Part shown: positions 1,293 through 16,239 of the stretch, piece by piece | How positions within the stretch are numbered: position 1 is the stretch's first letter | Layout of the letters: each line of letters starts with the position of its first letter | Source of the DNA: Dehalococcoidia bacterium | GTDB lineage: Bacteria; Chloroflexota; Dehalococcoidia; Lucifugimonadales; UBA3495 | Direction: 5' to 3' | DNA length: 30,778 nucleotides | Assembly (NCBI GenBank): GCA_030740155.1 | Contig: JASLXV010000081.1 | Location: forward strand, 1 to 30,778 | Position numbers and translations under genes: made by a program | Notes under the pieces: model-generated | What the model saw: only the letters and a program-made list of their open reading frames with translations | What the model was told of the DNA's origin: nothing | The model's database searches: none

Positions 1293-2441
1293 GTGTTTGG
1301 TGCACTTAATCCCTTTAAGAAGAAATCCGTTGAGAACGAGAACAACGGTCAGGAAAGTGAAGTGTACGCGGTTGAGGCAGTCAACCTGACCAAGATGTTC
1401 CAGCGCCGCTGGATAGCAGTCAACAGCATCAATTTCAAAATTCCTCAGGGGTCCACCTTCGGCCTGGTGGGGCCCAACGGAGCCGGCAAGAGCACCACCC
1501 TGCGCCTTATCATGGGCCTGCAGCATCCCACCGCCGGAGAGGTAAAGGTGTTCGGCGAGCGGATGAGCATGTACACCGGTCACCTGCGCCGCCGCATTGG
1601 GTACCTGCCCCAGGGGGAGCACTACCCCCGGGAAATGACCCCCATCGCCTACTTGGAGTTGGTGGGCAAGCTGCGGAGCGTGCCCCGCAAAGAGTGCGCC
1701 CGCCGCCTCTCGTCGCTGCTCCACGCCGTTGACCTGTTGAGCGCTGCCTCCACCCGAATCGGCAAACTTTCGGCGGGCATGACCACTCGCATGGCCATCG
1801 CCGCCTCCATGGTCAACGATCCGGACCTTCTGATGTGGGATGAGCCCACGGCGGGACTGGACCCCACGGGCCGTAAGTACACCCTGGACCTGATTAAAGA
1901 ACTGAAGAGCCAGGGCAAAACCATGATCGTCTCCACCCACCTGCTGCCCGACGCCGACCAGGTATGCGACCAGATCGGGGTGTTGAACGAGGGGAAGATG
2001 GTTTTCTGTGGCTCAATCATGGAGATGAAGCAATTCGTGCGGGAAAACGTGGTCGACTTGGGGCTGGCCGGGGACCTGAATCACTTCCGCCAGTCCCTGT
2101 CCGCCGACAGCCAGGTCCTCCGGTGGGAGCAATTGAGCCCGGATGTAATCAGGGTCAACTTCAGCGACGAACGCGGCTTTTCTCAGCAACTCAGACGGAT
2201 GCTGGAGTTGGTCTGTCAGTCGCCGGTGGAGCTACTGTCCATCCGCTCCGGTGGAGAGATTGAGGACGCCTTCCTCAAGCGGCTGGAGGCCGACCGGCTC
2301 AAGGGATTCAACCGGGCTTTCGATGCTCAACGCTCCTCCGAGAATGAGGGGATGCGGCCCATGATGACCGACCCCGACCAGGTTCTACCCGAAGAGCGAG
2401 TGAATGGAGCACTCGGGGTGGCGGAGGAGCAGCAGGTATGA
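1293..2441 (+). CDS. ABC-2 type exporter ATP-binding protein
   Basis: Walker A GPNGAGKST, signature LSAGM, Walker B LLMWDEP, H-loop STH. Start set at GTG 1293 after RBS GAGGTG. Confidence 0.92.
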   Translation: MFGALNPFKKKSVENENNGQESEVYAVEAVNLTKMFQRRWIAVNSINFKIPQGSTFGLVGPNGAGKSTTLRLIMGLQHPTAGEVKVFGERMSMYTGHLRRRIGYLPQGEHYPREMTPIAYLELVGKLRSVPRKECARRLSSLLHAVDLLSAASTRIGKLSAGMTTRMAIAASMVNDPDLLMWDEPTAGLDPTGRKYTLDLIKELKSQGKTMIVSTHLLPDADQVCDQIGVLNEGKMVFCGSIMEMKQFVRENVVDLGLAGDLNHFRQSLSADSQVLRWEQLSPDVIRVNFSDERGFSQQLRRMLELVCQSPVELLSIRSGGEIEDAFLKRLEADRLKGFNRAFDAQRSSENEGMRPMMTDPDQVLPEERVNGALGVAEEQQV

Positions 2442-3157
2442 AAGCGTTCATGGCTTTGCTAGAAGAAGACCTGGCGGCCATGTCCCGCTCTGTGACGGTG
2501 TGGATGTGGCTGGCCATCAGCGGTTTGGGGGGCTTCTCGGGTGTAATCTTCTCGGGGACCTTCGACCAGGAGGGCACCTCCTTCCTGTTGGGCTGGTTCT
2601 TGGTGCTGTACGTGGCCCTGGGGAGCTTCATGGTCATGACGATCGGCTCCTCCTCGGGCGGCACCGACCCGAGGACCTTGGGAACCTCCATAATCAGCCA
2701 CGGGGTTACTCCCATCCAGTTTGTGATGGCCATGCTCTTCTCCCGCACTATCACCGTCCTGGGCATGGCCGTGCTCATCATCGCTCCGGTGGCCTTCGCC
2801 ATGATGGCCAACGGCGTCTCGAACGACCTGGACGCCAACGGCATCATGGTTGCCCTAGCCTATATCGGGCTGCTACTCACCGTGCTGGTGTTCCTGAGCG
2901 TTACCTTCAGCGCCGTGGTCACCAACACCCCCGGTTCGTTGGGGATGATTTACATCCTCTGGTACACCGCCATCAGCCTGCTGATGGCCTACCAGGCAGA
3001 AGAGTTCTCCCCGGTGGGGGTCCTGGGCCGGGTGCCGGCCGTGTTGCAAGGAGATTTCGAGTGGTCGCTCCAATGGCCCGTTATGGCGGCCCTGGTGATC
3101 CCGCTGGTGGTGCTGCCACCCCTGGGCATCCGCATGTTCGGCCAGCGAGACCTGTAG
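2438..3157 (+). CDS. ABC-2 type exporter permease
   Basis: About six hydrophobic segments; its ATG overlaps the ATPase stop (ATGA). Confidence 0.85.
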   Translation: MKAFMALLEEDLAAMSRSVTVWMWLAISGLGGFSGVIFSGTFDQEGTSFLLGWFLVLYVALGSFMVMTIGSSSGGTDPRTLGTSIISHGVTPIQFVMAMLFSRTITVLGMAVLIIAPVAFAMMANGVSNDLDANGIMVALAYIGLLLTVLVFLSVTFSAVVTNTPGSLGMIYILWYTAISLLMAYQAEEFSPVGVLGRVPAVLQGDFEWSLQWPVMAALVIPLVVLPPLGIRMFGQRDL

Positions 3158-3187
3158 CCTATAATCTCGGCTTTGCTCTGTGAAGCG

Positions 3188-3221
3188 GTAGCGCCCCGAC
3201 AGGTCGGGGCGCTGCTTTTTT
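3188..3221 (+). terminator. Intrinsic terminator of the ABC operon
   Basis: GTAGCGCCCCGAC-AG-GTCGGGGCGCTGC hairpin followed by a T6 run. Confidence 0.85.
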
Positions 3222-3335: not shown

Positions 3336-4565
3336 CTAGCCACAGGCGGCGACGCCGTCCCGGACCAAGCCCTGTACCTCCTCCGGCGAGTAACCCGCCA
3401 GACTCATGAGCACCTCTTCGGTGTGCTGACCCACCTCGGGGGCGGGACCTCCCACCCTTCCCGGGGTCCGGCTGAGGTTCACCATCACCCCCAGGGTCCG
3501 CATCGGCCCGTGCACCGGGTGGTCCACGGTGGTCACGTACCCGTTCTCCGTTACCTGAGGGTCCTCGGCCACCTCGGCATAAGACTGGACTTTGGCCGCG
3601 GGGCAGCCGTGCTCCTTGAAGGCCTGGTACCAATCCTCCCGGGTGCGGGTGAGGAAGACCCGGTCCAGGATGGCGATGAGTTCCCGGTTGTTCTCGGCCC
3701 GGCGGTCGCCATGGCTGAAGCGGGCGTTCTGGGCCAGGGCGGGCTCCCCGATGGCTTGGCAGAAGGCGCCCCAGAACAGGTCGCTCTCGGTCATCGCCAG
3801 GTATATCCACTTGCCGTCGCGGCAGCGGTACAGGCTTCGGGTGGGGTTTAAGATGCTGGCGCGCTCCGGTGGCTGAGGGTCCTTACCGGTGCTCAGGCAG
3901 CCCTCCAGGAGCAGCTCGCCGGCGGTGAGCATGGCCCCAATGAGGGAGACCTTTACCTCCTGGCCCAGCCCGGTGCGCTCTCGAGCCAGCAGCGCCACGC
4001 ATACGGCGTAGGCCACCTGGATGCTGGAGGTCATGTCGGCGGCGCCGTACACCCCGGCGGTGGCCGGGTCGCTTTCTACGCTGGTGCGCATCATGTTTAG
4101 GAACCCGCTTCGGGCCTGGGCGGCGACGTCAACCCCCGGCAGCTCGGCATCGTCCCCCAGGGGCCCGTAGGTGTTCAGGTGCACGTAGATAATGGTTGGG
4201 TTGTAGCGGGACACCGTGGCGTAGTCCAGGCCCATGCGCTTCAGAGACTGCATCCTCAGGCTCGTGACCAGAACATCGCAGTGGGGCACGAGGCGATAGA
4301 GAGCGTTCCGGCCCCCTTCCTCTCGCAGATTCAGGGCCACCGATCGCTTCCCCCGGTTGGCCGATTCGAAGAAGTAGCTGTAAGAGCAGGCTGGGAAGAA
4401 GTTGGCGTTGCTCGGTGTCGCGGTGTGCCGGGACCGGTCCCCGATGCCCGGGTCCTCGACCTTGATGACCTCGGCCCCCATGTCCGCTAGGTCCCGGACA
4501 CCATAGGGGACGGCGGCCATCATGGCGAGTTCCAGTATCCGGTAGCCCTCCAGGGGCAACGGCAT
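3336..4565 (-). CDS. Family III (CaiB/BaiF) CoA-transferase
   Basis: LADMGAEVIKVE, NRGKRSVALNL, putative catalytic Asp in GAADMTS, C-terminal APEVGQHTEEVL. Confidence 0.93.
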   Translation of the reverse strand: MPLPLEGYRILELAMMAAVPYGVRDLADMGAEVIKVEDPGIGDRSRHTATPSNANFFPACSYSYFFESANRGKRSVALNLREEGGRNALYRLVPHCDVLVTSLRMQSLKRMGLDYATVSRYNPTIIYVHLNTYGPLGDDAELPGVDVAAQARSGFLNMMRTSVESDPATAGVYGAADMTSSIQVAYAVCVALLARERTGLGQEVKVSLIGAMLTAGELLLEGCLSTGKDPQPPERASILNPTRSLYRCRDGKWIYLAMTESDLFWGAFCQAIGEPALAQNARFSHGDRRAENNRELIAILDRVFLTRTREDWYQAFKEHGCPAAKVQSYAEVAEDPQVTENGYVTTVDHPVHGPMRTLGVMVNLSRTPGRVGGPAPEVGQHTEEVLMSLAGYSPEEVQGLVRDGVAACG

Positions 4566-4628
4566 GGTGCACCTCCTGAGGTGGTTGGGATGCGGCGAAG
4601 TTCCTCGTTCGGAGAAACGGGCGAGCCG

Positions 4629-5867
4629 CTACTGTCCGTTCCCGCTCTCACCCAGGGAGACGATGCCCTGCCTCTGAAGCTGCTCGATCTTCTGCTGGGA
4701 GTATCCCAGTAACTCCTGCAGCACCTCGGCGGTGTGCTGCCCCGTCTGGGGCACGGGATCGTAGATGGGCTGGTGGCTGGAGAGGTTGACGGGGTTGCGC
4801 ACGATCGGGACGGGCTTGCCCTCGACGCCCTCCACGTTGACGACGCAGCCCAGGGCTTGGGCCTGAGGATCGGCCAGGGCGGCATCCAGGGTCTTCACCG
4901 GGGCCACCGGCACTCGGGCCTCCACCAGGCGCTCATACCAGTACTCGGTGGGCTGCTGGACCATGACCTCATGCACCAGTTCCAGGAGCAGCCGCTTGTT
5001 TCTCATCCGCTCCGTCTCGGTGGCGAAGCGAGGGTCATCCCCCCATTCCGGCCGGCCCAAGACCCGGCAGAGTGGGGGAAAGGAACGGTCTCCCAGCACA
5101 CCCAGGGTGATGTGGCCGTCCTTGGTCGGAAAGATGCCCGCCAGGCTGAGCATGCCCACCGACCAGCCAGGGGCGCGGGGGACCTTCCCGCTGAGGAGGT
5201 GCTGGGTCGCGAAGAAGGTGTGGGTGCTGAGCCCAACCTCAAAGAGGGAAACCTCCACGTTTTGCCCCACCCCGGTGTGCTCCCGGTGAAAGAGGGCCGC
5301 CAGGATTCCCTGGGAGGCCCACACCGCGGTGGAGTAGTCCACGAAGGCCTGCCCGGCGAGCATGGGCGGCCCATTGGGCTCCCCCGTCATGCTGAGCATC
5401 CCGGAGTGGGCCGCGGCCACGCTGTCGAAGGAACCCCGCTCCCGGTAGGGCCCCTTGTTGCCGTACCCGCTGATGGAGCAACTGATGATGCGGGGGTTGA
5501 TCTTGTTCAGTGTCTCGTAGTCCACTCCTATCCGCTCCGCCGCCCCCGGACGCCAGTTGTTCTGGACGATGTCCAGGTGCTCTACCATCTGCCGGAAGAT
5601 TTCCAGACCTTCGGGCTCGTTGATGTTCAGAATTATGCTCTTCTTGCCCCGGCACTCGTAGTTGCCCCGGGCGTCCACCCCGCCGGAGGTGGTGGCGGCC
5701 AGCCCGCTCTTCGCGATGCCCCGGGGGCCTCGGCTGGGGACCTCCACCATGATAATATCGGCGCCAAGGTCCGAGAGGATGTTGGCTGACAGGCTCCCGG
5801 CCAGGGTGCGGCTGAAGTCCACCCCCCGGATCCCGCTCAGAGGGGCCGCGTGGTTTCCTCCACTCAT
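4629..5867 (-). CDS. Family III (CaiB/BaiF) CoA-transferase
   Basis: DFSRTLAG..LSDLGADII, RGKKSIILN, NWRPG, Asp in AFVDYST, GQHTAEVL. Confidence 0.93.
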   Translation of the reverse strand: MSGGNHAAPLSGIRGVDFSRTLAGSLSANILSDLGADIIMVEVPSRGPRGIAKSGLAATTSGGVDARGNYECRGKKSIILNINEPEGLEIFRQMVEHLDIVQNNWRPGAAERIGVDYETLNKINPRIISCSISGYGNKGPYRERGSFDSVAAAHSGMLSMTGEPNGPPMLAGQAFVDYSTAVWASQGILAALFHREHTGVGQNVEVSLFEVGLSTHTFFATQHLLSGKVPRAPGWSVGMLSLAGIFPTKDGHITLGVLGDRSFPPLCRVLGRPEWGDDPRFATETERMRNKRLLLELVHEVMVQQPTEYWYERLVEARVPVAPVKTLDAALADPQAQALGCVVNVEGVEGKPVPIVRNPVNLSSHQPIYDPVPQTGQHTAEVLQELLGYSQQKIEQLQRQGIVSLGESGNGQ

Positions 5868-5906
5868 GGTGTTCCTCCTTGCCTACTATGGGCCCACGGA
5901 TAGACG

Positions 5907-5982
5907 GCTAGACTTGATTGAGGGGCCAAATCCCCCTTTATAAAGGGGGACTCAGGGGGATTTCCGCATCGCCGAGTCTAGC
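5907..5982. repeat. Small MITE/REP-like element with CTAG-containing inverted ends
   Basis: Ends GCTAGACTTG and CGAGTCTAGC (9/10 inverted match). Internal perfect palindrome TCCCCCTTTATAAAGGGGGA at 5931-5950. Confidence 0.6.
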
Positions 5983-6058
5983 AACTTGTACAAAGCTCGT
6001 AGGTTCCTCGTCGGGCGATCCTGCCCCAAGATGTAACGGATTGGCGCAAGTACGCCGG

Positions 6059-6907
6059 CTAGGCCCGCCGGGGCTTGATTCCCGTGAACTTCACGCTGGA
6101 CACCTTCCCCTGTACTTGGGCCAGCTCCTCCTGCGCCGGGGCCGGGGCCGGGGTGAACTCCTCTCCGGGACAACAGGCCATGGCTGCCAGTTCGTCCGGG
6201 GTGAGCAGGTGGCGGTTGACGATGCGGACCTCGTAGAAACCAGCTTCACTCACCGTTTGCCAGTAGTCGTCCTCGGTGATGGCCCCTCCCAAACACCCGG
6301 ACCAGGTTGAGCGGAACCGCTCTCGCAACTCGGGGCCGATGTCCTCGGTGAGGACGATGTCCGAAATGGCCAGCCGCCCGCCGGCTTTCAGGACACGGCA
6401 GGCTTCCCGGTATATCTCCGCTTTATCCGGGCACAGGTTAATGACACAGTTGGAAATTACCACGTCGGCGAAACCATCCACCAGGGGGGTGTTCGCCAGG
6501 TCGGCGACGTGCAGTTCAACGTTCCCGCCGGCCAGCCCGGCTTCGGTTACCGCGCGGTTGGCGCGCTCAATCATCTCGGGGGCGAAATCTACCCCGGCCA
6601 CCCTGCCGTCGAGGCCCACCTTGTGCGCCGCCAGAACCACGTCGATGCCCCCGCCGCAGCCGAAGTCCACCACGACTTCACCGCTCCGGAGACCGGCAAA
6701 GCCGGTGGGGTTGCCGCAACCCCGGGTGAGGTTGAGGGCGGCCTCCGGCACCAGGTCAAGCTCCTCCGGAGAGTAGAGCCCTTGATCGACCGCGTAGCCC
6801 GAACCGGGCTTCGCCTTGCTGGGTCAACAGGCTTCCTGATTGCCCCCTGACGCGGCGAACTTTCCGTAGCGAACCCTGATGGCTTGCTTGATCTCCTCGG
6901 TCAGCAT
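6059..6907 (-). CDS. ArsM-like (arsenite methyltransferase family) SAM-dependent methyltransferase, probable selenoprotein (Sec at codon 28)
   Basis: RBS GAGGTG + ATG 6907 gives MLTEEIKQAIRVRYGKFAASGGNQEAC-UGA-PSKAKPGSGYAVDQGLYSPEELDLVPEAA, in frame with the tracked ORF. ArsM motifs: GCGNP, VVDFGCGGGID, ISNCVINL, WSGCLGGA. SECIS-like hairpin after the UGA. 282 aa. Confidence 0.85.
6786..6826 (-). promoter_or_regulatory. Candidate bacterial SECIS element with the in-frame UGA (6826-6824)
   Basis: mRNA reads UGA-CCCAGCAAG-GCG-A-AGCCCG-GUU-CGGGCU-A-CGC-GGUCGA. The G-starting apical loop begins 19 nt after the UGA, and UUGACC can pair with GGUCGA as a lower stem. Confidence 0.7.
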
Positions 6908-6937
6908 CCCGCACCTCGTCCCTGATGCCGTTTCAGT

Positions 6938-7078
6938 TAGTGTACCGGGCTGTAAATAGCTTTACATCGGCGAGATTGGGCGACACTCTCTCCCCACGAT
7001 CGTCCCCGATTGCATCGGGGGCAGGCTCTTCGCCGGGATGACGGATTGGGTGTCATGCCATTTACGATACATCAGACC
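6938..7078. repeat. Degenerate dispersed MITE/REP-like repeat (homologous to 28630-28789)
   Basis: Shares AAATAGCTTTAC.TCGGCG....GGGCGACA..CTCTCCC.ACGATCGTC and TTC.CCGGGAT.ACG with the copy after nadC. Confidence 0.7.
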
Positions 7079-7081
7079 GGG

Positions 7082-7372
7082 TTAGAAGAGGTCCTCCTCC
7101 ACACCGTTGTACTCCGGCAGGTGGTGGCGTCGCCGGAGGTATTGCTGGAGAAGCTCGCTCTCGCGCATGGTGTACATGTGGGTGGTCTCGTACTGGAAGA
7201 ACCGGGCCGGGGGCACCTCTTCTCGGGCGGCCTTCAAGGCTTGCCGCAGGTCTGGGGCCCCGGCAATGCGGAGCACCTGCTCCTTTTCATCCAGGAGTTG
7301 GTACACGCCCTCCCTATCGGGGACATCCTCCAGAGCCGTGTCTTCCAGTGGAAACTTCGGGGGCCGGCGCAT
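7082..7372 (-). CDS. Small GIY-YIG/UvrC-N-like protein resembling the C-terminal domain of BzdV
   Basis: VPDREGVYQLLDE..VLRIAG..DLRQAL..MYTMRESELLQQY..LPEYN..EDLF, in a bzd gene context. Confidence 0.7.
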   Translation of the reverse strand: MRRPPKFPLEDTALEDVPDREGVYQLLDEKEQVLRIAGAPDLRQALKAAREEVPPARFFQYETTHMYTMRESELLQQYLRRRHHLPEYNGVEEDLF

Positions 7373-7419
7373 GATGCGTTCTCTTTCTCCCTTCCGGCAT
7401 TTGGGCGGCGGGCGGCGGG

Positions 7420-7701
7420 CTACCAGGAGTGGACGATGGCGTCGTGGGGGCAGGCCAGAACGCAGGGGAGCGGCGGAGGGCTATCCACCGGCTTGCAAGG
7501 GGCGCAACTGAACTTCAGATTCTTGCGGTGCTCTTCCGACACCGTTAACACCGTGTCGTCGTAGTCGTCGAGCATCATTTCCAGCACCCCCGCCGGGCAG
7601 GCCGGGACGCAGTCGCCGCAGCCGTCGCAGCGGCCGCTATCCACCCGGATGTACCAGTCACCCGACCCATCGGTGTACCCGTAGTGAGCGATGTATCCCA
7701 T
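7420..7701 (-). CDS. bzdM: Bzd-type 2[4Fe-4S] ferredoxin
   Basis: AHYGYTDGSGDWYI, CDGCGDCVPACP, CAPCKP..LPCVLACP..AIVHSW, directly after bzdQ. Confidence 0.85.
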   Translation of the reverse strand: MGYIAHYGYTDGSGDWYIRVDSGRCDGCGDCVPACPAGVLEMMLDDYDDTVLTVSEEHRKNLKFSCAPCKPVDSPPPLPCVLACPHDAIVHSW

Positions 7702-7830
7702 ACCTGCCTGCTGCCTCGTTACGCTACGGTTCGCGGCCTCCGCGCCAAAGCACCGTCTTGGTTCGCCCCTCCCCAGGGTAGGAGCGTGGGGCCGGCGCCC
7801 CGCTGCACGCCGGCGCGGGCGTCAGCCGCT

Positions 7831-8733
7831 TCATCCCTTGGCCTTCGCCCTCAGGGCCAAGCTGTTGGCGAAGAGAGCGGCGCCCAGGGCGCCGGCGGTC
7901 TGGGGGTCTGTACCCTCGGGCGGCGCCAGGGCCTTTACCCCCAGCTTCCGCTCGATGCGCTTGACGATGCCGGGGTTCTTGGCGATACCCCCGGTGATGG
8001 CGAACTCCGGCTCCAGGCCGATGCGCTCCAAGAGGGTGACCACCCGGCCCGCCATGGCTTCGCAGAAGGCGGCCAGGGCCAGCTCCCGGGAATAGCCGGT
8101 GCGCAGCAAACCCAGGACCTCCGACTTGGCGAAGACGACGCAGGTGCTGCTGACAGCGGGAGGGTCTTTCTCCACGTTCAGGGAGAGGGGGCCCATCTCC
8201 GTTACGGAGACCTTCATCAGCTCGGCCATGGTCTCCATGCCCCGCCCCGTGCCGGCGGCGCACTTGTCGTTCATGAGAAACTCTTCCAGCTTGCCCCTTT
8301 CGTCGCAGCGGATGGCCTTGCAGTCCTGCCCCCCCATGTCCAAGATTGTGCGGACGGTGGGACCGTAGATGAAGTTGGCCCCCCGGGCGTGGCAGCTGAT
8401 CTCGGTGATCTGGCGCTGGGCGAAGGGGATGTTCACTCGTCCGTAGCCGGTGCCCACCACGTAGGCCACGTCTTCGAGGGAGAGAGCCGCGGGCTCCAGG
8501 GCCCATTCCATGGCCTGCTGAGCTATTGAGGCGCTGTCGGCGGAGGTCCGGATGCTGGCGAAGGCGAAGGGTTGGCCGTCCCGCAGCACAACGGCTTGGG
8601 TGCTGACCGAACCGACGTCAATGCCGCCGGTCAGGAGGGCGCCATCGGTCCCGCCCGTGTCTTCGGCGTGCCAGCGGTACTCTTCCCACCGCCAGTATTC
8701 CCGATCTCCTCGCTCCAACACCTCGCGCACCAT
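7831..8733 (-). CDS. bzdQ: Bzd-type aryl-CoA reductase ATPase (activator) subunit Q
   Basis: EYWRWEEYRW N-terminus, GIDVGSVS, LDMGGQD, MNDKCAAGTG, STCVVFAKSE. Start at ATG 8733 after RBS GAGGAGG. Confidence 0.88.
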   Translation of the reverse strand: MVREVLERGDREYWRWEEYRWHAEDTGGTDGALLTGGIDVGSVSTQAVVLRDGQPFAFASIRTSADSASIAQQAMEWALEPAALSLEDVAYVVGTGYGRVNIPFAQRQITEISCHARGANFIYGPTVRTILDMGGQDCKAIRCDERGKLEEFLMNDKCAAGTGRGMETMAELMKVSVTEMGPLSLNVEKDPPAVSSTCVVFAKSEVLGLLRTGYSRELALAAFCEAMAGRVVTLLERIGLEPEFAITGGIAKNPGIVKRIERKLGVKALAPPEGTDPQTAGALGAALFANSLALRAKAKG

Positions 8734-8753
8734 GGAATGGTCCTCCTCTAAGG

Positions 8754-9554
8754 TTATAGGGCAGCCGTTCGATTCTCGCTTTGGGCGTTTCGCACCCCCA
8801 TGACCGCGGCGCCCACCGCCGCGACCATGTCCGGGGGATCGGGCACCTCCAGGTGGTCCACCTCGAGGGTTTGGCGCAGGGCCTCCACGAAACCCACGTC
8901 CCAGCCCATGCCGCCGCACACCATCATCGCCTCTTCCGCGCCCACCCGGTGGACCAGGGCGGCCAGCCGCCGGGCCATGGACACGTGGATGGCCAGCATG
9001 ATGTTCTCCCGGGGGGTCTTGGCGTGGATCTGGGAGATGATCTCAGTCTCGGCAAAAACAACACAGGTGGCGCTCATGTCCGCCGCCTCGGTAGCCGTGA
9101 GGGAGAGCCGGCCCGCCTCATCCAGGGGGACCTCCAGCATGCGGGCGGCGGTCCGGACGAAGGAGCCGGTACCGGCGGCGCACTGATCGTTGGTGGCGAA
9201 GCGCTCCATCTGACCCTGGGGGCCGACCCGGATGGCCCGGGCGTCCTCCGCTCCCACGTCCATTACGGTGCGGGCTTCCGGCGCCAGGAAATTGGCCCCC
9301 GCGGCGACGGCAACGATCTCCGTCACCGTGTGGTTGGCCCCGGACACCCAGGTAGAGCCGGTGCCCGTGGCCACCAGATAGCCTAGGTCGCCCCGCTCCA
9401 GGCCCCCGAGCTTCAATACCTCCTGGAGGACCTGCTGGGCCGTGGCATCGATGTCGAACTCGGTGGGGACCCGCGCGGTGGCCACCAGGCCCTGAGGGCC
9501 GACGATGGCCGCCTTGGTGACCTCTGATCCTACGTCAATTCCCACGACGTACAT
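8754..9554 (-). CDS. bzdP: Bzd-type aryl-CoA reductase ATPase (activator) subunit P
   Basis: GIDVGSE, DVGAEDAR, NDQCAAGTGSF, ATCVVFAETE (ASKHA fold with [4Fe-4S] Cys ligands). Confidence 0.85.
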   Translation of the reverse strand: MYVVGIDVGSEVTKAAIVGPQGLVATARVPTEFDIDATAQQVLQEVLKLGGLERGDLGYLVATGTGSTWVSGANHTVTEIVAVAAGANFLAPEARTVMDVGAEDARAIRVGPQGQMERFATNDQCAAGTGSFVRTAARMLEVPLDEAGRLSLTATEAADMSATCVVFAETEIISQIHAKTPRENIMLAIHVSMARRLAALVHRVGAEEAMMVCGGMGWDVGFVEALRQTLEVDHLEVPDPPDMVAAVGAAVMGVRNAQSENRTAAL

Positions 9555-9584
9555 GGTACGCTCCTTATCATCCGGGCCCGAGTT

Positions 9585-10715
9585 CTAGAAGAGGGCATTC
9601 TCTAGAAGGGTCTCCATGAAGGCCTCCACCCTGGTGCGGATGGGGCCGTATGGGGTAGGGAAGGTCATCTCCACCCGGAGGGTGGGGATGTCTTCCTCCT
9701 TCAGTTTGGCTTCCAGGACCGGCGTTTCCCAACCGTGGGGATCGCAGAACTTCTGGAGGGCGAAGATAACACCGCTGACGTTGTACTCGCGCGCCAGGTT
9801 CATGATGTGCGGGACGCGGGTGCGGCTAGTCCAGTCCCGCAGGGGGCATCGGGGCCGGTCGATGTAGCGCTGGGCCAGCGTCAGTATCCGGTCCTCGGCT
9901 GGAGTCACCTCGTTCCAGAAGTAGCGGGTGCCGGCGCATTCGTCGTCGGTGACGATGAGCATCCCTGCCTGCTCGATGGTGCGCACCAACTCCACGTCGT
10001 TCAGCTCGCTGCCCACCAGCATGCCCCTGAGTTCCGGAAGGTCGATCTGCCGGCCTTCCAACTCCCCTAGGAGCTGCTCCAGCAGCTGGTTGTGATCCGC
10101 CTTGTCCATGTAGAATCCGGCCAGCACCACCTCCAGGACCTCGGCTCCGGTGATGGGCGGGGTGGGGCTCTTGCGCGTCTCGTAGAGCCGATGCAGCAGC
10201 CGGCGGTTGGTGTTGTACACCTCGAAGGCGTGGTCCAGCGCCTCGTTGGTAATGGCCTCGCCCCGCCACTCCTCGACCTGTTTCCGGAAGGTTTCCATCT
10301 CCCGGCCCCAGTAAGCGGGGGCCGCCGGAGTCTGGAGGTTCCAGGGGGCGTCGATGAAGTGTTTCTTGGGGCCGGGGATCTCCCGCTGCCAGATCTCGTA
10401 CATCTGGGTCATGTGGATACAGGTGAGGGTGCTCACGAAGTAGCCCAGATAGTCGTAATGCCCGTCCAGCCCGGCGGAGACGCAGCTCCGCGAGAAGCCG
10501 CACCAGGTGGCGCCCATGGACCGGTCCGCCGATCCGGGGTATCCCAGGTCGCCGAAGATCCGCACCGGAAGGACCCCCGCCGCATAGGCGATCTCCTCAG
10601 GGACGTAGGTGCAGGTGTACCCCAAGACCTGTCCCCCGGTTCGCTCCTTCCAGGCTTTTGGGTAGGCGTGCCGGTCCCGGGTGATCTCCGCCAACTGTGC
10701 CAGCGCATTACTCAT
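9585..10715 (-). CDS. bzdN: Bzd-type aryl-CoA reductase subunit N (HgdAB/FldBC family)
   Basis: RHAYPKAWKERTGGQVLGYTCTYVPEE, DDECAGTRYFWN, RYIDRPRCP, QKFCDPH, GPIRTRVEAF. Alternative start at 10721. Confidence 0.88.
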   Translation of the reverse strand: MSNALAQLAEITRDRHAYPKAWKERTGGQVLGYTCTYVPEEIAYAAGVLPVRIFGDLGYPGSADRSMGATWCGFSRSCVSAGLDGHYDYLGYFVSTLTCIHMTQMYEIWQREIPGPKKHFIDAPWNLQTPAAPAYWGREMETFRKQVEEWRGEAITNEALDHAFEVYNTNRRLLHRLYETRKSPTPPITGAEVLEVVLAGFYMDKADHNQLLEQLLGELEGRQIDLPELRGMLVGSELNDVELVRTIEQAGMLIVTDDECAGTRYFWNEVTPAEDRILTLAQRYIDRPRCPLRDWTSRTRVPHIMNLAREYNVSGVIFALQKFCDPHGWETPVLEAKLKEEDIPTLRVEMTFPTPYGPIRTRVEAFMETLLENALF

Positions 10716-12075
10716 TGCCATCTCCCGCCGGAGCGGCGCCCGCCGACCGGCTTTCCCCGATGGGCCGGAGCCCCATCCCCTCCATGAAGGCGTCCAGGGT
10801 CTTCAGGGCGGCCGGGATGTTCAACTCCCGGGGATCGGCGGTACTGGGGTCGATATCCACCGCCGGGACTCCCGCCCGTTGGATCTCGGCCATGCGGGAC
10901 AACCCGCCCAGGGAGCTGGGCCGGCACCGCCGTTCCAATCCCAGGATGACCCCGTCGGCCTTCCAGTCCCGCACCTGGGCCAGGACCTCGTCGCCCTTGG
11001 ACATGGGCCGGCAGGTGACCTGGGTCGCCCGAATGACTCCTTCTCCCCCCAGATAGCGGTCGGCCATGGACCACAGCCCGTCTTCCCGGGTGCGCACGTC
11101 CCAGCCCCGCTCCTTGGGCGTCTTGGAGGGCACCCAACTCCCGTCGGGCGTCACGTCCCAGACCCCGAAGCTGACGAAGGGAAGGCTGCCCCCGACGAGG
11201 ACGGCCCCGTAGGCCTCGGGGTAGCGGAGGAGCTTCTGCCCCTCGGGGAAGAACGGGATGAAGTCGTCCCACAGGAGCCGGGCCGTCTCCACGCCCCGGG
11301 CGGAGATGCCCTCATCAACCCGCTGCTTCACCTCGTCGTACACCGTCCGGTAGAACTCCAGGATGTGGGGCTTGTCCCGGTCCAGGATGAGGGGAATACG
11401 CAGGGAGGTGAGCATACGGTAGTCCAGGGGTGCGGGAACGGCCTGGTTGAGAACGCAGATGCGGGACCAGAGGGCGCTGGTCTCCCAGTCCAGCTCCAGG
11501 GCGCGGAGGAACAGCTCGTCCTGAAACTTCTTGCCGGTGATCCCTTCGATCTCCTCGATGGCGATATGGAATTGGTCCACCATGTACTGGAGGTCCGGCG
11601 ACTGGTAGCCGTAGCGGAATGGCAGGTCCAGGGTGACTATGGGGACCCCTCCCAGGTGCTCCACCACCGACTGGACCATCTTCATCGTGAAGGGGCACAG
11701 CTCCCACTGGAAGACGAAGTCCGGCTTCCGGCCTTCCAGGGCCTCGGTCAGGTGGCCCCGGTACACGCCCCCCAGGTGCAGTTTGAGGGAGCTGCACAGG
11801 TCCTTCGGGTAGCCTCGGGTCTCCAACAGCTCCAGGTTGGCCACGTTCTCGTCGTAGGAGCGCACCATCTTGGTGAACCGGGGCTCGTATTGCCAGCTGG
11901 CATACTCCCCGAACCCGGCCATCAAGGGCTGGAACTCCTCGATGATGCCCACGGCCACCATTCCACCCGAATTGGCCGTCTGCTCGTTGTGGACGTGATG
12001 GGCGCGGCGTAACTCCTTCATCTTGGCCCAGCATTCCAGGGGCTTGATTGGGTAACGTTGGAGGGTCTGCACCAT
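10708..12075 (-). CDS. bzdO: Bzd-type aryl-CoA reductase subunit O, divergent
   Basis: YPIKPLECWAKMKELR, GYPKDLCS, KPDFVFQ, PAPLD, GVWDVTPDGSW, WKADGVIL. Overlaps the bzdN start. Confidence 0.82.
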   Translation of the reverse strand: MVQTLQRYPIKPLECWAKMKELRRAHHVHNEQTANSGGMVAVGIIEEFQPLMAGFGEYASWQYEPRFTKMVRSYDENVANLELLETRGYPKDLCSSLKLHLGGVYRGHLTEALEGRKPDFVFQWELCPFTMKMVQSVVEHLGGVPIVTLDLPFRYGYQSPDLQYMVDQFHIAIEEIEGITGKKFQDELFLRALELDWETSALWSRICVLNQAVPAPLDYRMLTSLRIPLILDRDKPHILEFYRTVYDEVKQRVDEGISARGVETARLLWDDFIPFFPEGQKLLRYPEAYGAVLVGGSLPFVSFGVWDVTPDGSWVPSKTPKERGWDVRTREDGLWSMADRYLGGEGVIRATQVTCRPMSKGDEVLAQVRDWKADGVILGLERRCRPSSLGGLSRMAEIQRAGVPAVDIDPSTADPRELNIPAALKTLDAFMEGMGLRPIGESRSAGAAPAGDGNE

Positions 12076-12179
12076 GTCGCTGCCTCCTCAACGGCACTGG
12101 GCCGTCATCTTCAATTTTCGAGCCCATCCGGGCTCTTCCGGGTGGCTGAGTCCTGGTCATTCGATTGGATCGGGTGATT

Positions 12180-12331
12180 AGTTGCTAGCCCAAAACCTTG
12201 AGTGCCGGTTTCAGCGGTCCTTCGACAGGCTCAGGACGAACGGGATGGGCGCTCCTGCTTCGTTCGCGGTGAGGCTCAGGACAATCGGAAAGGGCGCTCC
12301 TGCTCCGTTCGTGGTGAGCTTGTCGAACCAC
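12180..12331. repeat. MITE/REP-like element, degenerate copy of 19115-19238 in opposite orientation with an internal duplication
   Basis: CCCAAAACCTTGAGTGCCG..TCCTTCGACAGGCTCAGGACGAACGG..GGGCGCTCCT..CGTTCGTGGTGAGCTTGTCGAACCAC. Confidence 0.85.
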
Positions 12332-12348
12332 TTCATCTTTGTTCTTGC

Positions 12349-13572
12349 TCAGAGCACGCCCGAGTCCCTGACTTGGGCAATGCGCTCGGGGCTGTAGCCC
12401 AGGATGCCGCTCAACACCTCCTCGGTGTGCTCCCCCAGCCGGGGGGCCAGGCCCCTGGGCCGGGCCGGCGTCTTCTCGAAGTGGACTGGAGGCCCCACCA
12501 GCTTCCAGGGGGTCCCATCATCGTCCTCAAGGTCTACCACGTAGCCGCTCTCCACGGCCTGGGAATACTTGACCGCCTCCTCCGTGTTCAGCACGGGGGC
12601 GTAGCCAAACTGGCACCCGTTTACATCGAAGATGCAGATCCACTCGTCCCGGGGCCGGGTGGCGAAGGCCTCCTCTAGCCCCTGGATGGCCACTCCGTAG
12701 TGCTCCCGCCGCTTGACGGCGTTCTCCAGCCGGGGGTCCATGGCCAGGTCCTCCCGGTCCATCAGGAGGCACATCTCCTCCCAGTAACGGTCCGACTGGG
12801 GCTCCGCCAGAATGATCCACTTGTTGTCGGAGCACCGGTAGTGGTTGGACATGGGGTTGCGGGCGCGGGCGCGGGAGTGGCGTCCCATGGCCCGCCCTTG
12901 CATGAGGGCGGTATTTACGTTGACGGCTTGCATGTGAAGGGCCGTTCCGAGGAGAGACGCTTCCACCATCTGACCCTCCCCGGTTCGCTCCCGGTGCAGC
13001 AGGGCCGCCAGGATGCCCCAAGCGCTCATGGTCGCCCCCGACTGGTCGAAGAGTCCTCCCACCACCTGCCACGGCTCGTCGTGGTCCCGCTCCCCCATCA
13101 TCCACATCACCCCCGAGAGGGCCTGGGCCAGAGGGTCGAAGAAGCGCTTCGAGGTGATGGGTCCCCGGGGTCCGACGGGGGATGCCAGGGTGTAGATGAG
13201 CTTGGAATTAAACTTGCGCAGGGTTTCGTAGTCGGCGCCCATGCGGCAGAGGGTGGCCGGCCGGAAGTTGGTGAGGAACACGTCGGTCTTCGCCACCAGC
13301 TCGTGGAAGATCTGCCGGCCGGGTTCCTGCCTCAGGTCGAGGGTAATGCTCTTCTTGTCGCGGTTGGCGGTCTCCATGAAAAGGTTCCGGCCGCCGGGCA
13401 GGGCCATGCTGGAGCCCCACAGGTTATAGAAGTGGCGGGAGGCGTCACCCACTCCGGGCTCCTCCACCTTGATGACCTCAGCTCCCAGTTGCGCCAGCAT
13501 GTAACCCCCCGCGGTGCCATGCTGGAAGGTCGTGCATTCCAGAATCCGAATGCCCTCTAAGATATCGCCCAT
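12349..13572 (-). CDS. Family III (CaiB/BaiF) CoA-transferase
   Basis: LGAEVIKVEEPGVGD, NRDKKSITLDL, TNFRP, Asp in GLFDQSG, APRLGEHTEEVL. Confidence 0.93.
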   Translation of the reverse strand: MGDILEGIRILECTTFQHGTAGGYMLAQLGAEVIKVEEPGVGDASRHFYNLWGSSMALPGGRNLFMETANRDKKSITLDLRQEPGRQIFHELVAKTDVFLTNFRPATLCRMGADYETLRKFNSKLIYTLASPVGPRGPITSKRFFDPLAQALSGVMWMMGERDHDEPWQVVGGLFDQSGATMSAWGILAALLHRERTGEGQMVEASLLGTALHMQAVNVNTALMQGRAMGRHSRARARNPMSNHYRCSDNKWIILAEPQSDRYWEEMCLLMDREDLAMDPRLENAVKRREHYGVAIQGLEEAFATRPRDEWICIFDVNGCQFGYAPVLNTEEAVKYSQAVESGYVVDLEDDDGTPWKLVGPPVHFEKTPARPRGLAPRLGEHTEEVLSGILGYSPERIAQVRDSGVL

Positions 13573-13801
13573 GGTTCACCCCCGGCGTATTGCCACCGCC
13601 CCGGACGGCGCGACCGCCTTCCCGGTGTCTTGTGCCTCCGGTGGCTGAAGCGTGAACAGGGACGCCGGATCTTTGGTGAGGAGGCGGACCTGCTCCACGG
13701 AGGCTCACTTGTCCCTCTGATCGCTACTGGACCGCGCCCCACTGGGATACCCCATTTCAACGGGCGCGGAGGCAACCTGCGTGCCGTCTCAGAACAGAGC
13801 C

Positions 13802-13830: not shown

Positions 13831-14153
13831 CCATCTCATCAAGCGCATCAGCCTGTCCGGCGGCGTCGTGAACTGGAGTTTGACGGGTAATGGCGGAGGC
13901 TTTCACTACATTCGCCCCGTGGAATGGCCAGGAGCATGAATATCGCGGAGGTCACCGAGATGGGGTGGAGCGGGAATGGATCAGAGCGGTTAGGTAGCGA
14001 AGTTGCTGGTAATGCTACTGTGTGCAAATCTCCCTCGCTCCGCTTCATGAAAGGGGGCTTTGCCTCAAAGCCGTATCTTTTTTCGAAAGTGCCATGCTGT
14101 GCCAGCCGTGGCGTCAAGGCATCTGGGGAAGGGCTTCTCCTCCACCTCCCCAG

Positions 14154-14185
14154 ATCCCGAGTCCTTCCCGCGAAGGACTCGGGAT
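14154..14185. repeat. Perfect 14-bp inverted repeat (REP-like hairpin or terminator downstream of the cyclase gene)
   Basis: ATCCCGAGTCCTTC-CCGC-GAAGGACTCGGGAT. Confidence 0.6.
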
Positions 14186-14261
14186 GACGATGCGGTGTCC
14201 ATTTCGTTCTCGTGGAGACCCTCTGCGGCGGGCCAGATGTTCAAGGGATTTTGCGGAATCC

Positions 14262-15209
14262 TCAGAAGGTCGCCAGCGGGGTCACCGGCGAGCCGGTGAC
14301 GGTGGGAAACCGGAGCGCCGCCATGGTGAACATAAAGTCCCACCGGCCGAGGGCCTCGCATTGAACCACCAGGTCGTCGAAGTTGGCGTTGTCGAGGAGC
14401 CACAACCCCATGGCAACGATACCCACCTGGTGAATCGGCATATCGAGGGCCTCGTAGCCGCTGGGGATAACGTCGTGGGCGGCGTCGGAGGCGATCAAGG
14501 ACACGCCTCGTTCCCTCAGCCAGGGCAGCGTCTCGGCGTGGAGGCCGGGCCTTCCGTCGACCCGGATCACCGGGCCGAGGGCCAGCCGCCGCTTGTACCA
14601 GCCCAGGCGGAGGCACAAGGCGTCCCCAACTCCGACCCGCACGCCCTGAGCCGCCTCGGCAGCCTCCAGGTCTTCCACGTACACCGCCTCGCCCGGCTCG
14701 AACCACTCTTTGCCCCGGACCTTGGTGATGTCCAGCAAGACGCCTCGGGTGATGACGCCGTCCTTGAGCACCGCGACGTCGTTCACCGTCGCCCCGCCCC
14801 TGGTGGTCACCATCTCGGCCGGCCGTCCCCCGTACATCTTCCCGTCCCAAAAAACGTGGCTGAGGGCGTCGATGTGGGTGCAGTAGAGGCCGTGGAAGGC
14901 CAGGGCGATGAGGTCCCCCACCGCCTGGCGGGGACCCCGGGCCCCGGCCGAAGCCAGGTTGTAGCCCTCGCCGCTTTCCAGCATGAAGTGCAACGGCGGG
15001 ATGGGCGTATCGATGGCCGGCGCGGTGGAGATGGGCCGGGCACAGCCGACGGTGATGCCGAGCTTGACCAGGGCGGCGGCCCGGATCCGAGTCTCGTTGT
15101 CGACCAGGTTCAAGGTCCCCAGCAGGTCGTCATCTCCCCAGCGGCCCCAGTTGCTCAGGGTGTTGAAATACTCCAGGACTTCTTCTTCTGACGGGATTCG
15201 TGGCGCCAT
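14262..15209 (-). CDS. Cyclase family metal-dependent hydrolase (kynurenine formamidase/isatin hydrolase-like)
   Basis: LSNWGRWGDDDLLGTLN, HGLYCTHIDALSH, TRGVLLD, LWLLDN, TGSPVTP. Start reset to ATG 15209 because the tracked extension runs through a repeat. Confidence 0.9.
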   Translation of the reverse strand: MAPRIPSEEEVLEYFNTLSNWGRWGDDDLLGTLNLVDNETRIRAAALVKLGITVGCARPISTAPAIDTPIPPLHFMLESGEGYNLASAGARGPRQAVGDLIALAFHGLYCTHIDALSHVFWDGKMYGGRPAEMVTTRGGATVNDVAVLKDGVITRGVLLDITKVRGKEWFEPGEAVYVEDLEAAEAAQGVRVGVGDALCLRLGWYKRRLALGPVIRVDGRPGLHAETLPWLRERGVSLIASDAAHDVIPSGYEALDMPIHQVGIVAMGLWLLDNANFDDLVVQCEALGRWDFMFTMAALRFPTVTGSPVTPLATF

Positions 15210-15278
15210 ATCGTTCGCCTTCTCCTCGTTGCAATTCGCTTGGTGTCTATCCAATAACTCCAAATGAGGCCGCTTTTG

Positions 15279-15339
15279 GTCCTTCGACAGGCTCAGGACG
15301 AACGGATTTTTCCTGTTTATGGTGAGCTTGTCGAACCAC
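15279..15339. repeat. REP-like hairpin core (same family as the 12180 and 19115 elements)
   Basis: GTCCTTCGACAGGCTCAGGACGAACGG..GGTGAGCTTGTCGAACCAC. Confidence 0.85.
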
Positions 15340-15363
15340 GGCGCCTGGTTGTTCGATGGGCTG

Positions 15364-16239
15364 TCAATGGCCGGGCGACGACCGGAGCCGCTGTTCCCGC
15401 TTTTCCAGGATGGAGTCGGCAATGCCCTGAACGATGCGCCACAGCATCTTGAAAAGATCGCTCCCGTCCCGGAAATCGGCCGCATACGGGCCGACGGTCA
15501 GCCTCTCGCCTTCGGCCAGCTCGTAGGGCTTCCTCAGTTCCGTGTCTTCCGGCGGCCACACCCCGATCGCCTTTCCCTTCAACCGGCGGATCATGGAGAA
15601 GCAAGGGATATCGCTGGGTCCGTCACCGATGTAGACCATGTGCTCGAAGGGCACCCGCCGGTCTTCATCCTTGATGGCGTCGTTCACCCGGAAGGGTCTT
15701 CGCCGCAGCTCCGTGCCCGACAATCCCTTACTTATCGCGTGAATGAATTTGGTTTTCTCCGTGAAGGTCACCGACCGTTTTACGGCCACGGCCCGGTCCG
15801 CATCATCGTAGGCAAAAGCGCAGGCAAAGATGTCGTTGGCCAGCCGGCCGAGAGGAGTGGCGCCCAGGACTCCCTCGATCCCGCTGCTGACGATGTACCA
15901 CTCGACCGTGACACCGGCCTCCCGGTACTCGGCTTGGCCGGACAGCTTGTCACGGAGCCGGTCGACAAAATCCAATGCGCCTGGATAGAACTCAACATCG
16001 CCGCCCACGCCTTCCAGTTTCGACTTCGTTAATGGGCCGGCTGGGCGGTCCTGGGTGGGTTCCAAAAGTTGGTTCAGATAGGCGAGGGTGTGGTCCCAAC
16101 CGTCCTCGACGAGGCCGACCACGTCTCTCTTCCAGAACCGGCCGGATTCAAGGCCCAGTTCCCGGACCAGCTTGTCGGTGGAGTCCGGGCACAGAGTGCC
16201 GTCACAGTCACAAATAATGGCGATGACGTCCTGGGCCAT
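15364..16239 (-). CDS. HAD-superfamily hydrolase
   Basis: Motif I CDCDGTL, motif II IVSSG, motif IV YIGDGPSD. Start at ATG 16239 after GGAGGG. Confidence 0.88.
   Translation of the reverse strand: MAQDVIAIICDCDGTLCPDSTDKLVRELGLESGRFWKRDVVGLVEDGWDHTLAYLNQLLEPTQDRPAGPLTKSKLEGVGGDVEFYPGALDFVDRLRDKLSGQAEYREAGVTVEWYIVSSGIEGVLGATPLGRLANDIFACAFAYDDADRAVAVKRSVTFTEKTKFIHAISKGLSGTELRRRPFRVNDAIKDEDRRVPFEHMVYIGDGPSDIPCFSMIRRLKGKAIGVWPPEDTELRKPYELAEGERLTVGPYAADFRDGSDLFKMLWRIVQGIADSILEKREQRLRSSPGH

Follow-up and report, generated by a model that had tools for sequence, protein, structure and literature searches.

A divergent Bzd-type enzyme locus linked to family III CoA-transferases in a seawater Dehalococcoidia genome

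Position among described ATP-dependent radical enzymes

To our knowledge, no ATP-driven Birch reductions are known in biology other than those of the class I benzoyl-coenzyme A (CoA) reductases. The first structure of a catalytic dimer of this class, that of BzdNO of CIB (PDB 8S02, 8S1T and 8S2R), was reported in 2025 and describes a [4Fe-4S] cluster in BzdO that is bound by Cys95, Cys128 and Cys380 and whose water ligand is kept in place by Glu65 and His131, a benzoyl ring flanked by Trp46, Tyr97, Leu302 and Leu383, a thioester oxygen hydrogen-bonded by Tyr97, Tyr298 and Gln274, and an [8Fe-9S] double cubane in BzdN bound by Cys36, 73, 100, 263, 293 and 327 (PMC11971306). The 3-methylbenzoyl-CoA reductase MbdONPQ (PDB 9G87 and 9GAI) and the Thauera-type BcrCBAD belong to the same superfamily of ATP-dependent aryl-CoA reductases, and are described as permanent heterotetramers of another subfamily (PMC11971306). 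The locus studied here, a set of minus-strand genes at positions 3336-13572 of contig JASLXV010000081.1 from the Dehalococcoidia bacterium assembly GCA_030740155.1 (Chloroflexota), encodes homologues of BzdO, BzdN, BzdP and BzdQ (hereafter O, N, P and Q), a ferredoxin and three family III CoA-transferases (CoAT1-3). The window, that is the stretch of DNA analysed, is the whole of this contig (30,778 nucleotides; C81), one of 108 in a 3.6-Mb genome that is 93.7% complete and 7.65% contaminated.

The locus has the four subunit types and the ferredoxin in common with the Bzd system of CIB, and BzdNO is its best match in sequence as well as in fold. O aligns with 8S02_A at E 3.6e-63 (217 bits), compared to E 5e-17 (65 bits) with HadB and E 4.7e-05 with the far more distant MbdO, and N aligns with 8S02_B at E 4.1e-91. 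The best fold match of an AlphaFold (AF2) model of O (pLDDT 92.2) is likewise BzdO 8S02 (TMq 0.85-0.87, 30% identity), followed by HadB (TMq 0.75), MbdO (0.72-0.75) and DCCP (0.66-0.71). However, if canonical proteins are defined as those passing the NCBIfam equivalog cut-offs, only Q qualifies, while N and O both fall well under theirs. When 100 full-length O-like proteins and the O-like protein (O2) of a second locus on contig C32 of the same genome were scored, four passed TIGR03191 (P0132, P0152, P0169 and P0175), and the O of the window and its four clade relatives reached 209-257 bits. In a maximum-likelihood tree of O (65 rows from 101 proteins, including seven HadB-/BcrB-like outgroup rows; quick IQ-TREE search with SH-aLRT support only) the protein falls in a 5-row clade (SH-aLRT 100) nested within non-canonical clades of 18 (100), 26 (99) and 31 rows (100), and all four canonical proteins are found in a separate 11-row clade (99). 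A tree of N (31 rows, same type of search and support), in which the outgroup is one very long branch and the basal position is uncertain, groups the protein of the window with P0002 and P0003, outside a 27-row group (84) holding all 13 proteins over the BzdN cut-off. Sequence, predicted fold and tree position place the enzyme within the Bzd-type radiation, yet apart from the canonical benzoyl-CoA reductases.

The gene order also sets the locus apart from the Bzd system, being O-N-P-Q, with neither a bzdA ligase nor bzdWXY, and with family III CoA-transferases instead. Compared to the dehydratases HadA/HadBC/HadI and FldA/FldBC/FldI (PDB 3O3M), it shares the HGD-D heterodimer with a three-cysteine [4Fe-4S] site, an ATP-dependent activator of the BcrAD family and an adjacent family III transferase (here three PF02515 genes), but differs in carrying two ATPase genes rather than one, double-cubane ligands in N and a dedicated ferredoxin. 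The scores against the HadB (NF052455, 81 bits, cut-off 750) and HadC (NF052456, 180.8 bits, cut-off 700) models are low, and the O model resembles the HadB fold less closely (TMq 0.75) than that of BzdO (0.87). Nor does the enzyme resemble a DCCP (NF040772; N 181 bits and O 28 bits, cut-off 350), a homodimer with an [8Fe-9S] cluster in each subunit, as there are two different subunits here and O holds a three-cysteine site only. A precedent for an aryl-CoA reductase of type I acting on a non-benzoyl substrate, likened here by description, is the tetrahydro-2-naphthoyl-CoA reductase of sulfate-reducing naphthalene degraders, the genes of which lie amid others for hydratase, dehydrogenase, hydrolase, CoA-transferase and thiolase enzymes; in that system, however, the characterised transferase is of family I and the substrate is activated by a ligase (PMC11659651).

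Few close relatives were retrieved. When 1.84 billion cluster representatives were searched exhaustively with HMMER, 645 matched O at E <= 0.001, only two of them closely (a fragment of its own cluster at 88% and P0124 at 53%) and the next at 39%, and a word-indexed search added three relatives at 47-51%. For N, among the best 120 of 1103 matches, one cluster was near-identical (98%) and the next relative stood at 49%. Among 60 related genomes the O protein was found in a same-genus genome alone, and in none of the 59 other family- or order-level genomes was a BzdO-like protein detected at E <= 1e-20; a genome-contig scan with the 5-sequence clade alignment also returned the same-genus genome as the sole relative among 130 pattern matches. 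In a wider sample of the class, 20 of 401 genomes, this one included, had an O-like protein matching at E <= 1e-50, and the best of these matches stood at 42% identity. Six Dehalococcoidia genomes of 1.6-3.3 Mb (G172, G190, G207, G130, G153 and G224) each gave 34-56 first-look BzdO-like candidates, four of which were scored in each, a hint that these subunits of radical enzymes form large families of paralogues.

Cluster ligands, substrate pocket and proposed reaction

Residues were mapped through a HMMER alignment to 8S02 and checked on two multiple alignments in which the canonical proteins show the published residues. In common with BzdNO, N has all six [8Fe-9S] cysteines (37, 74, 101, 262, 292 and 326) and the surrounding Arg54, Arg266, Arg289 and His329, and O retains the three [4Fe-4S] ligands (C94, C127 and C384), which are invariant in all 42 aligned family members, as well as Glu65 (Glu64 in the protein of the window). 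The pocket, on the other hand, is replaced: in BzdO numbering, Ser44 has become Ile, Trp46 Glu, Tyr97 Ser, His131 Thr (Thr130), Gln274 Phe, Tyr298 Leu, Leu302 Ser, Glu381 Arg, Gly382 Pro and Leu383 Ser. Not one of the six ring and thioester contacts (Trp46, Tyr97, Gln274, Tyr298, Leu302 and Leu383) is present, and the Glu65/His131 acid/base pair is incomplete, with the Glu kept and the His exchanged for Thr. When Trp46, Glu65, Tyr97, His131, Gln274 and Tyr298 were scored together, five or six were present in eight of the 42 aligned proteins, but only one (Glu65) in the O of the window and in its four clade mates. Judged by these residues, the parts of the Bzd machine that handle electrons have stayed intact, in contrast to its benzoyl-CoA site.

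Because the ring and thioester-oxygen clamps of BzdO are all replaced, the acyl-CoA substrate is presumably not benzoyl-CoA. Glu46, Glu65, Phe274 and Arg381 (BzdO numbering; the last is Arg385 in the O of the window) are invariant within the 5-row clade, and since Glu46 and Arg385 stand in for Trp46 and Glu381, the substrate would be polar or charged; Arg385 may, however, face the cluster rather than the substrate. The odds that the substrate is aromatic are roughly even.

In the proposed mechanism the locus would encode a four-subunit, ferredoxin-fed, ATP-dependent Fe-S radical enzyme belonging to the Bzd branch within the benzoyl-CoA reductase/2-hydroxyacyl-CoA dehydratase family. The neighbouring 2x[4Fe-4S] ferredoxin would hand an electron to the P/Q ATPase pair, ATP hydrolysis would lower the potential of this electron, and it would then pass to the double-cubane [8Fe-9S] cluster of N and from there to the three-cysteine [4Fe-4S] site of O, where the acyl-CoA would be reduced. 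The family III transferases, CoAT1 above all, would form this substrate without ATP, with a free acid and a thioester donor as starting materials. We give a probability of roughly 0.55 to a stoichiometric ATP-driven two-electron reduction, at the cluster of O, of a non-benzoyl acyl-CoA made by the adjacent transferases. What favours a two-electron reduction over a redox-neutral radical reaction is that there are two distinct ATPases, that a ferredoxin is dedicated to the enzyme, that the double-cubane 'electron store' is complete and that Glu65 is retained; the transferases are taken to supply the substrate of the enzyme. A more specific and rather doubtful extension is a CoA-transferase-coupled Birch-type branch, of which this locus would be the founding member and by which a seawater Dehalococcoidia bacterium with a SAR202-like expansion of CoA-transferases and a haem-copper oxidase would reduce aromatic (or unsaturated alicyclic) acids of a polar or charged kind, present in refractory marine dissolved organic matter, after ATP-free activation.

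The family and the machine are known, while the open-access literature searched describes neither the pocket nor the tree position, nor a conserved coupling between the Bzd branch and family III transferases, and it yielded no paper on a Dehalococcoidia or double-cubane benzoyl-CoA reductase with a CoA-transferase. If the enzyme is active, the Bzd scaffold would gain a wider substrate range and perhaps reaction type, and the locus would be tied to ATP-free CoA transfer instead of activation by a ligase. Source databases label homologues of these subunits 'benzoyl-CoA reductase', and benzoyl-CoA reductase genes have served as evidence that Chloroflexi break down aromatics anaerobically (PMC5736913). 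For this branch such a conclusion is not justified by the active site, and if the doubtful Birch-type extension above holds, the 'benzoyl-CoA reductase' annotations of the branch in marine Chloroflexota metagenomes would stand for a different chemistry.

Linkage to CoA-transferases and competing explanations

All three transferases match PF02515 over its full length (profile positions 1-366, E 3e-95 to 4e-104), and their Asp176, Asp177 and Asp177, respectively, align with the active-site Asp of SUGCT, features they have in common with SUGCT, formyl-CoA transferase and the benzylsuccinate CoA-transferase BbsEF. The nearest solved relatives are of the dicarboxylate type (SUGCT, formyl-CoA transferase and BbsF) at 149-231 bits at most, being SUGCT for CoAT1 (149 bits) and formyl-CoA transferase (231 bits) and SUGCT for CoAT2. 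No NCBIfam equivalog was reached by any of the three, all scores being far below cut-off.

The gene order is conserved well beyond the genome analysed. In the same-genus genome (L017/L019) the order cyclase-CoAT1-O-N-P-Q-ferredoxin is retained at 87-94% protein identity up to the contig end, which lies within the ferredoxin gene, and two independent metagenome contigs (L020 and L021) are identical to the locus in gene order. A transferase adjoins O in 11 of the 17 metagenome loci retrieved with the clade alignment, although these 11 are not independent, as L020 and L021 stand for one organism and L027-L033 for one lineage. Directly upstream of O, both L022 and L023 (O 51-53% identical) have a CoAT1-like gene (44-47%), and L023 has another downstream; the genes of L027-L033 (O 37-39%) are arranged as N, O, CoAT1-like gene (44-50%). 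Where the contig is long enough (L028-L033), a second transferase follows the CoAT1-like gene, and in L028-L029 and L031-L033 it is nearest to CoAT3 (36-38%). These syntenic CoAT1-like genes are likely orthologues, since they are closer to CoAT1 than is its best paralogue within the genome (39.7% identity). In the three best loci of the class survey (L037-L039, one genus) N-O is followed by a CoAT2-like gene (42%), and more distant Dehalococcoidia loci in which N is over the cut-off (L046, L047, L052 and L055) show N-O-P-Q without a transferase. The distant transferase-linked relatives adjoin MmgE/PrpD, PGA_cap, URO-D-like and ABC-transporter genes, a neighbourhood that does not suggest an aromatic pathway.

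A second, far more divergent locus of the same design is located on contig C32 at about 34000-47200 (L018, 1-13196). It contains two BcrAD ATPases, a DCCP/BzdN-like subunit (NF040772, 154 bits), an O-like protein without NCBIfam match at E <= 1e-60, and four family III CoA-transferases in a row with a fifth beyond a gene for an oxidoreductase dependent on flavin adenine dinucleotide (FAD); a D-2-hydroxyacid dehydrogenase is encoded about 5 kb away.

Several observations weigh against the reduction of a transferase-made acyl-CoA proposed above, and the first group concerns the transferases themselves. With 102 PF02515 matches at E <= 1e-10, or about 100 genes in 3.6 Mb, chance neighbours are to be expected and adjacency alone is weak evidence; an expansion of family III CoA-transferases of similar kind is described for SAR202 (PMC5395668). 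Gaps of 129-273 nt between CoAT1 and O, Q and ferredoxin, the DUF7508 gene and the methyltransferase, and the methyltransferase and CoAT2, together with the methyltransferase gene in the middle of the locus, weigh against assuming one transcript, and the genes may be divided among several transcription units. In four relatives (L056-L059, O 35-40%), moreover, there is no transferase within the available 0.5-1.5 kb downstream. The transferases could thus be chance neighbours, the substrate coming from an unlinked ligase or pathway, an explanation which is also served by the 191-273 nt gaps and the repeat element lying between transferases and core genes. It is nevertheless improbable in our view, as CoAT1-like genes stand beside O in lineages 37-53% identical in O, either upstream (L022 and L023) or downstream (L027-L033), are nearer to CoAT1 than any of the ~100 paralogues in the genome, and the transferase is retained in the same-genus genome. 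It is this conserved synteny, and not bare adjacency, that carries the argument for a transferase linkage.

The second group concerns the chemistry, as family III CoA-transferase coupling is a hallmark of the HadA/FldA dehydratase systems. The enzyme could be a redox-neutral ketyl-radical enzyme (dehydratase, isomerase- or lyase-like) on a Bzd scaffold, in which the transferase makes a 2-hydroxyacyl-CoA or similar thioester, the carbonyl ligates the open iron of O and one recycled electron drives an elimination. The layout of transferase, HGD-D subunits and activator would then be that of HadABC-I and FldABC-I, and all three thioester hydrogen-bond donors, Tyr97, Gln274 and Tyr298, which in BzdO keep the thioester oxygen off the cluster, are gone (the alignment column of Gln274 adjoins an indel of two residues and is mapped with an uncertainty of 1-2 residues, but there is no Gln nearby). 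Position 131 varies within the clade (Thr, Ala, Ala, Ser and Tyr), and in HadB the position of BzdO His131 is occupied by Ala (PMC11971306). The loss of His131 and of the thioester donors consequently fits a dehydratase-like site, with the carbonyl on the iron, as well as it fits a reductase. The locus on C32, where an HGD-D/ATPase set has four adjacent transferases, a fifth nearby and the D-2-hydroxyacid dehydrogenase ~5 kb off, is a further point in favour of such an enzyme. Two different ATPases and a dedicated ferredoxin are, however, a feature of stoichiometric reductases, and the full six-cysteine double-cubane set of N is described as absent from HadC (PMC11971306). In addition, O is far closer to BzdO than to HadB by sequence (217 against 65 bits), fold and tree, Glu65, the proposed Birch-like proton donor, is present throughout the clade but has given way to Gly or Thr in the non-canonical proteins closest to it, and the window is devoid of a 2-hydroxyacid dehydrogenase. 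A redox-neutral enzyme is regarded as unlikely, yet as the main rival of the proposed reduction.

An ordinary benzoyl-CoA reductase, divergent merely through its Chloroflexota origin, would in turn require that benzoate is activated by a succinyl-CoA:benzoate-type transferase and that the lower pathway is run by unrecognised crotonases. The Q score over the BzdQ equivalog cut-off, the presence of all cluster ligands and Glu65, and the complete Bzd-type pathways reported in marine Chloroflexi (PMC5736913) agree with this. Genome-wide searches for Dch (best 89 bits, cut-off 292), Had (121 and 339), Oah (89 and 464) and benzoate-CoA ligase (263 and 375) gave scores nowhere near the cut-offs, and no crotonase-type (Dch, Oah), Had-type or ligase-type match on the contig of the window; the pathway models are built largely on proteobacterial enzymes, and divergent Dch or Oah orthologues could hide among the 38 crotonase-type matches. 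Against an ordinary enzyme stand also the absence of all six benzoyl/thioester contact residues and the loss of His131, the position of O outside the canonical clade (SH-aLRT 99-100), and the canonical N-O-P-Q loci of other Dehalococcoidia (L046, L047, L052 and L055), which indicate that the divergence is no property of the class. We therefore hold this explanation to be very improbable.

An earlier note on this DNA had read the locus as a divergent Bzd-type dearomatising reductase operon for (hetero)aryl-CoA esters, fed by family III CoA-transferases and lacking a CoA ligase and dch/had/oah genes. The divergence is borne out by the scores of O and N under the equivalog cut-offs, their positions outside the canonical clades and the BzdO fold of O, and the link to the transferases by their conservation beside distant relatives of O in the synteny survey (11 of 17 metagenome loci, and the CoAT2-like gene in L037-L039). 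The missing ligase and lower-pathway genes were confirmed for the cluster, and bzdWXY (dch/had/oah) gave nothing over cut-off in the 93.7%-complete genome, so that the case named in the note as its refutation, nesting within canonical BzdNO together with a complete benzoyl-CoA pathway elsewhere in the genome, does not apply. The terms 'dearomatising' and '(hetero)aryl', on the other hand, are supported neither way.

Locus content, genome setting and occurrence

Gene calls were taken from Pfam and NCBIfam scans (Table 1), which recovered the genes named in the earlier note, co-oriented and in the order claimed; they are strong hidden Markov model matches and not chance open reading frames.

Table 1. 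Features of the locus and its immediate surroundings, in window coordinates.
Feature	Coordinates	Strand	Supporting match
CoAT1, family III (CaiB/Frc-type) CoA-transferase, 407 aa, catalytic Asp176	13572-12349	-	PF02515 E 2.9e-95
BzdO-like catalytic subunit (HGD-D), 455 aa	12075-10708	-	TIGR03191 214.6 bits, cut-off 448.6
BzdN-like electron-storage subunit (HGD-D), 378 aa	10721-9585	-	TIGR03190 312 bits, cut-off 453.8
BzdP-like BcrAD_BadFG ATPase, 266 aa	9554-8754	-	PF01869 E 1e-44; TIGR00241 191.7 bits
BzdQ-like BcrAD_BadFG ATPase, ~300 aa	8733-7831 (reading frame open from 8919)	-	TIGR03192 389.3 bits, cut-off 380.2
Ferredoxin, 93 aa, 8 Cys (2x[4Fe-4S]), BzdM position	7701-7420	-	Fer4 families
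Stand-alone DUF7508 protein, 96 aa	7372-7082	-	PF24348 E 4.4e-07
ArsM-like S-adenosylmethionine-dependent methyltransferase, 282 aa if TGA is read as selenocysteine	6907-6059	-	PRK11873
CoAT2, family III CoA-transferase, 412 aa, Asp177	5867-4629	-	PF02515 E 1.2e-101
CoAT3, family III CoA-transferase, 409 aa, Asp177	4565-3336	-	PF02515 E 4e-104
'Putative cyclase', kynurenine-formamidase-like hydrolase family, 407-aa open reading frame	14262-15485	-	PF04199 E 5.8e-18
Short repeated intergenic element between CoAT1 and the bzdO-like gene	12216-12331; second copy 15278-15339	.	repeat search

The P- and Q-like ATPases are encoded by two distinct genes with 36% mutual identity, and Cys125 and Cys164 of the former are located where the ligands of the bridging cluster are expected, a role which we take over from the HgdC and benzoyl-CoA reductase literature. 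The bzdQ-like gene likely starts at the ATG at 8733, since this Met is where the same-genus copy starts to be conserved (93%, from residue 1). Homologues of the ferredoxin (53-58%) adjoin Q in L026 and L045, and in L025 and L026 (O 55-60%) a DUF7508 gene lies directly upstream of O, the order in L026 being Q-Fd-DUF7508-O (Fd, ferredoxin), which argues that ferredoxin and DUF7508 protein both belong to the system. The DUF7508 protein matches 57 longer proteins, most of ~840 aa with 2Fe-2S, 4Fe-4S and GltD-like flavin domains, and is 52% identical to residues 751-842 of one of them, the 842-aa GltD-like Fe-S flavoprotein P0305. BzdV is regarded as a putative NADPH:ferredoxin oxidoreductase (PMC5658619), and the label 'BzdV-CTD-like' given in the earlier note is plausible on architectural grounds, although the gene is better named as a stand-alone DUF7508.

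The methyltransferase reading frame called from 6751 is probably truncated. A start at 6907 brings in an in-frame TGA (6826-6824), which read as selenocysteine gives a Cys27-Sec28 pair (Sec, selenocysteine) and raises the PRK11873 score from 215.4 to 241.1 bits (profile positions 4-269), still under the cut-off of 263. The protein also matches the NCBIfam ArsM selenoprotein 'exception' models, and in a check for a selenocysteine insertion sequence (SECIS) the hairpin after the TGA folded like shuffled sequence (z = -0.2).

The gap between CoAT1 and O is 273 nt here and about 130 nt at the same-genus locus. The repeat element within it comprises two 45-nt tandem units at 12227-12316 that are 87% alike, and further copies of its flanks occur at 15278-15305 (28 nt, 100%) and 15315-15339 (92%). 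Promoter and terminator scans were no richer than shuffled sequence (2 versus 1.5 and 10 versus 8.6, respectively) and so mark out no transcription units. A strong 13-bp GC-rich hairpin followed by a T-run at 3187-3216, between CoAT3 and a converging plus-strand gene (2404-3183), may act as a shared terminator. The PF04199 cyclase adjoins CoAT1 in the same-genus genome too; that copy (L017) matches from residue 85 onward only (93% over residues 85-407), and the true start is probably near 15230. This hydrolase was considered as a sign of an amino-aryl substrate, an idea which was dropped. The remainder of the window encodes housekeeping functions (aconitase, a MiaB-like protein, NadA, NadC, a chlorite-dismutase-family protein, D-Tyr-tRNA deacylase and a tRNA), and a scan of the window at Rfam gathering thresholds returned the tRNA alone, with no riboswitch to name a ligand.

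At least 95% of the sampled words of 7000-13600 were found in each of 14 DNA runs, which come from eight or more seawater or marine studies; some of the runs may be the source of the assembly. On this basis the organism is common. RNA contigs from four libraries, each of a different study, match CoAT1, O, N, Q, the ferredoxin/DUF7508 region, CoAT2, CoAT3 and the 5' end of P with zero mismatches, and one of them crosses the N/P junction. None covers the methyltransferase or 13850-14283, and the contigs show presence only. They give a weak hint that the locus is transcribed; DNA carry-over is possible, and the contigs provide neither strand nor level. Apparent joints in RNA contigs between 12331 and 15281 were rejected, as these represent other copies of the repeat element, at the borders of which RNA contigs join or end in the manner expected of multi-copy sequence.

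The genome carries a haem-copper oxidase and five 2-oxoacid:ferredoxin oxidoreductase matches that could reduce ferredoxin, and the organism is probably a facultative aerobe with this capacity. An oxygen-sensitive radical enzyme in a seawater organism equipped with a haem-copper oxidase is in itself a puzzle worthy of note.

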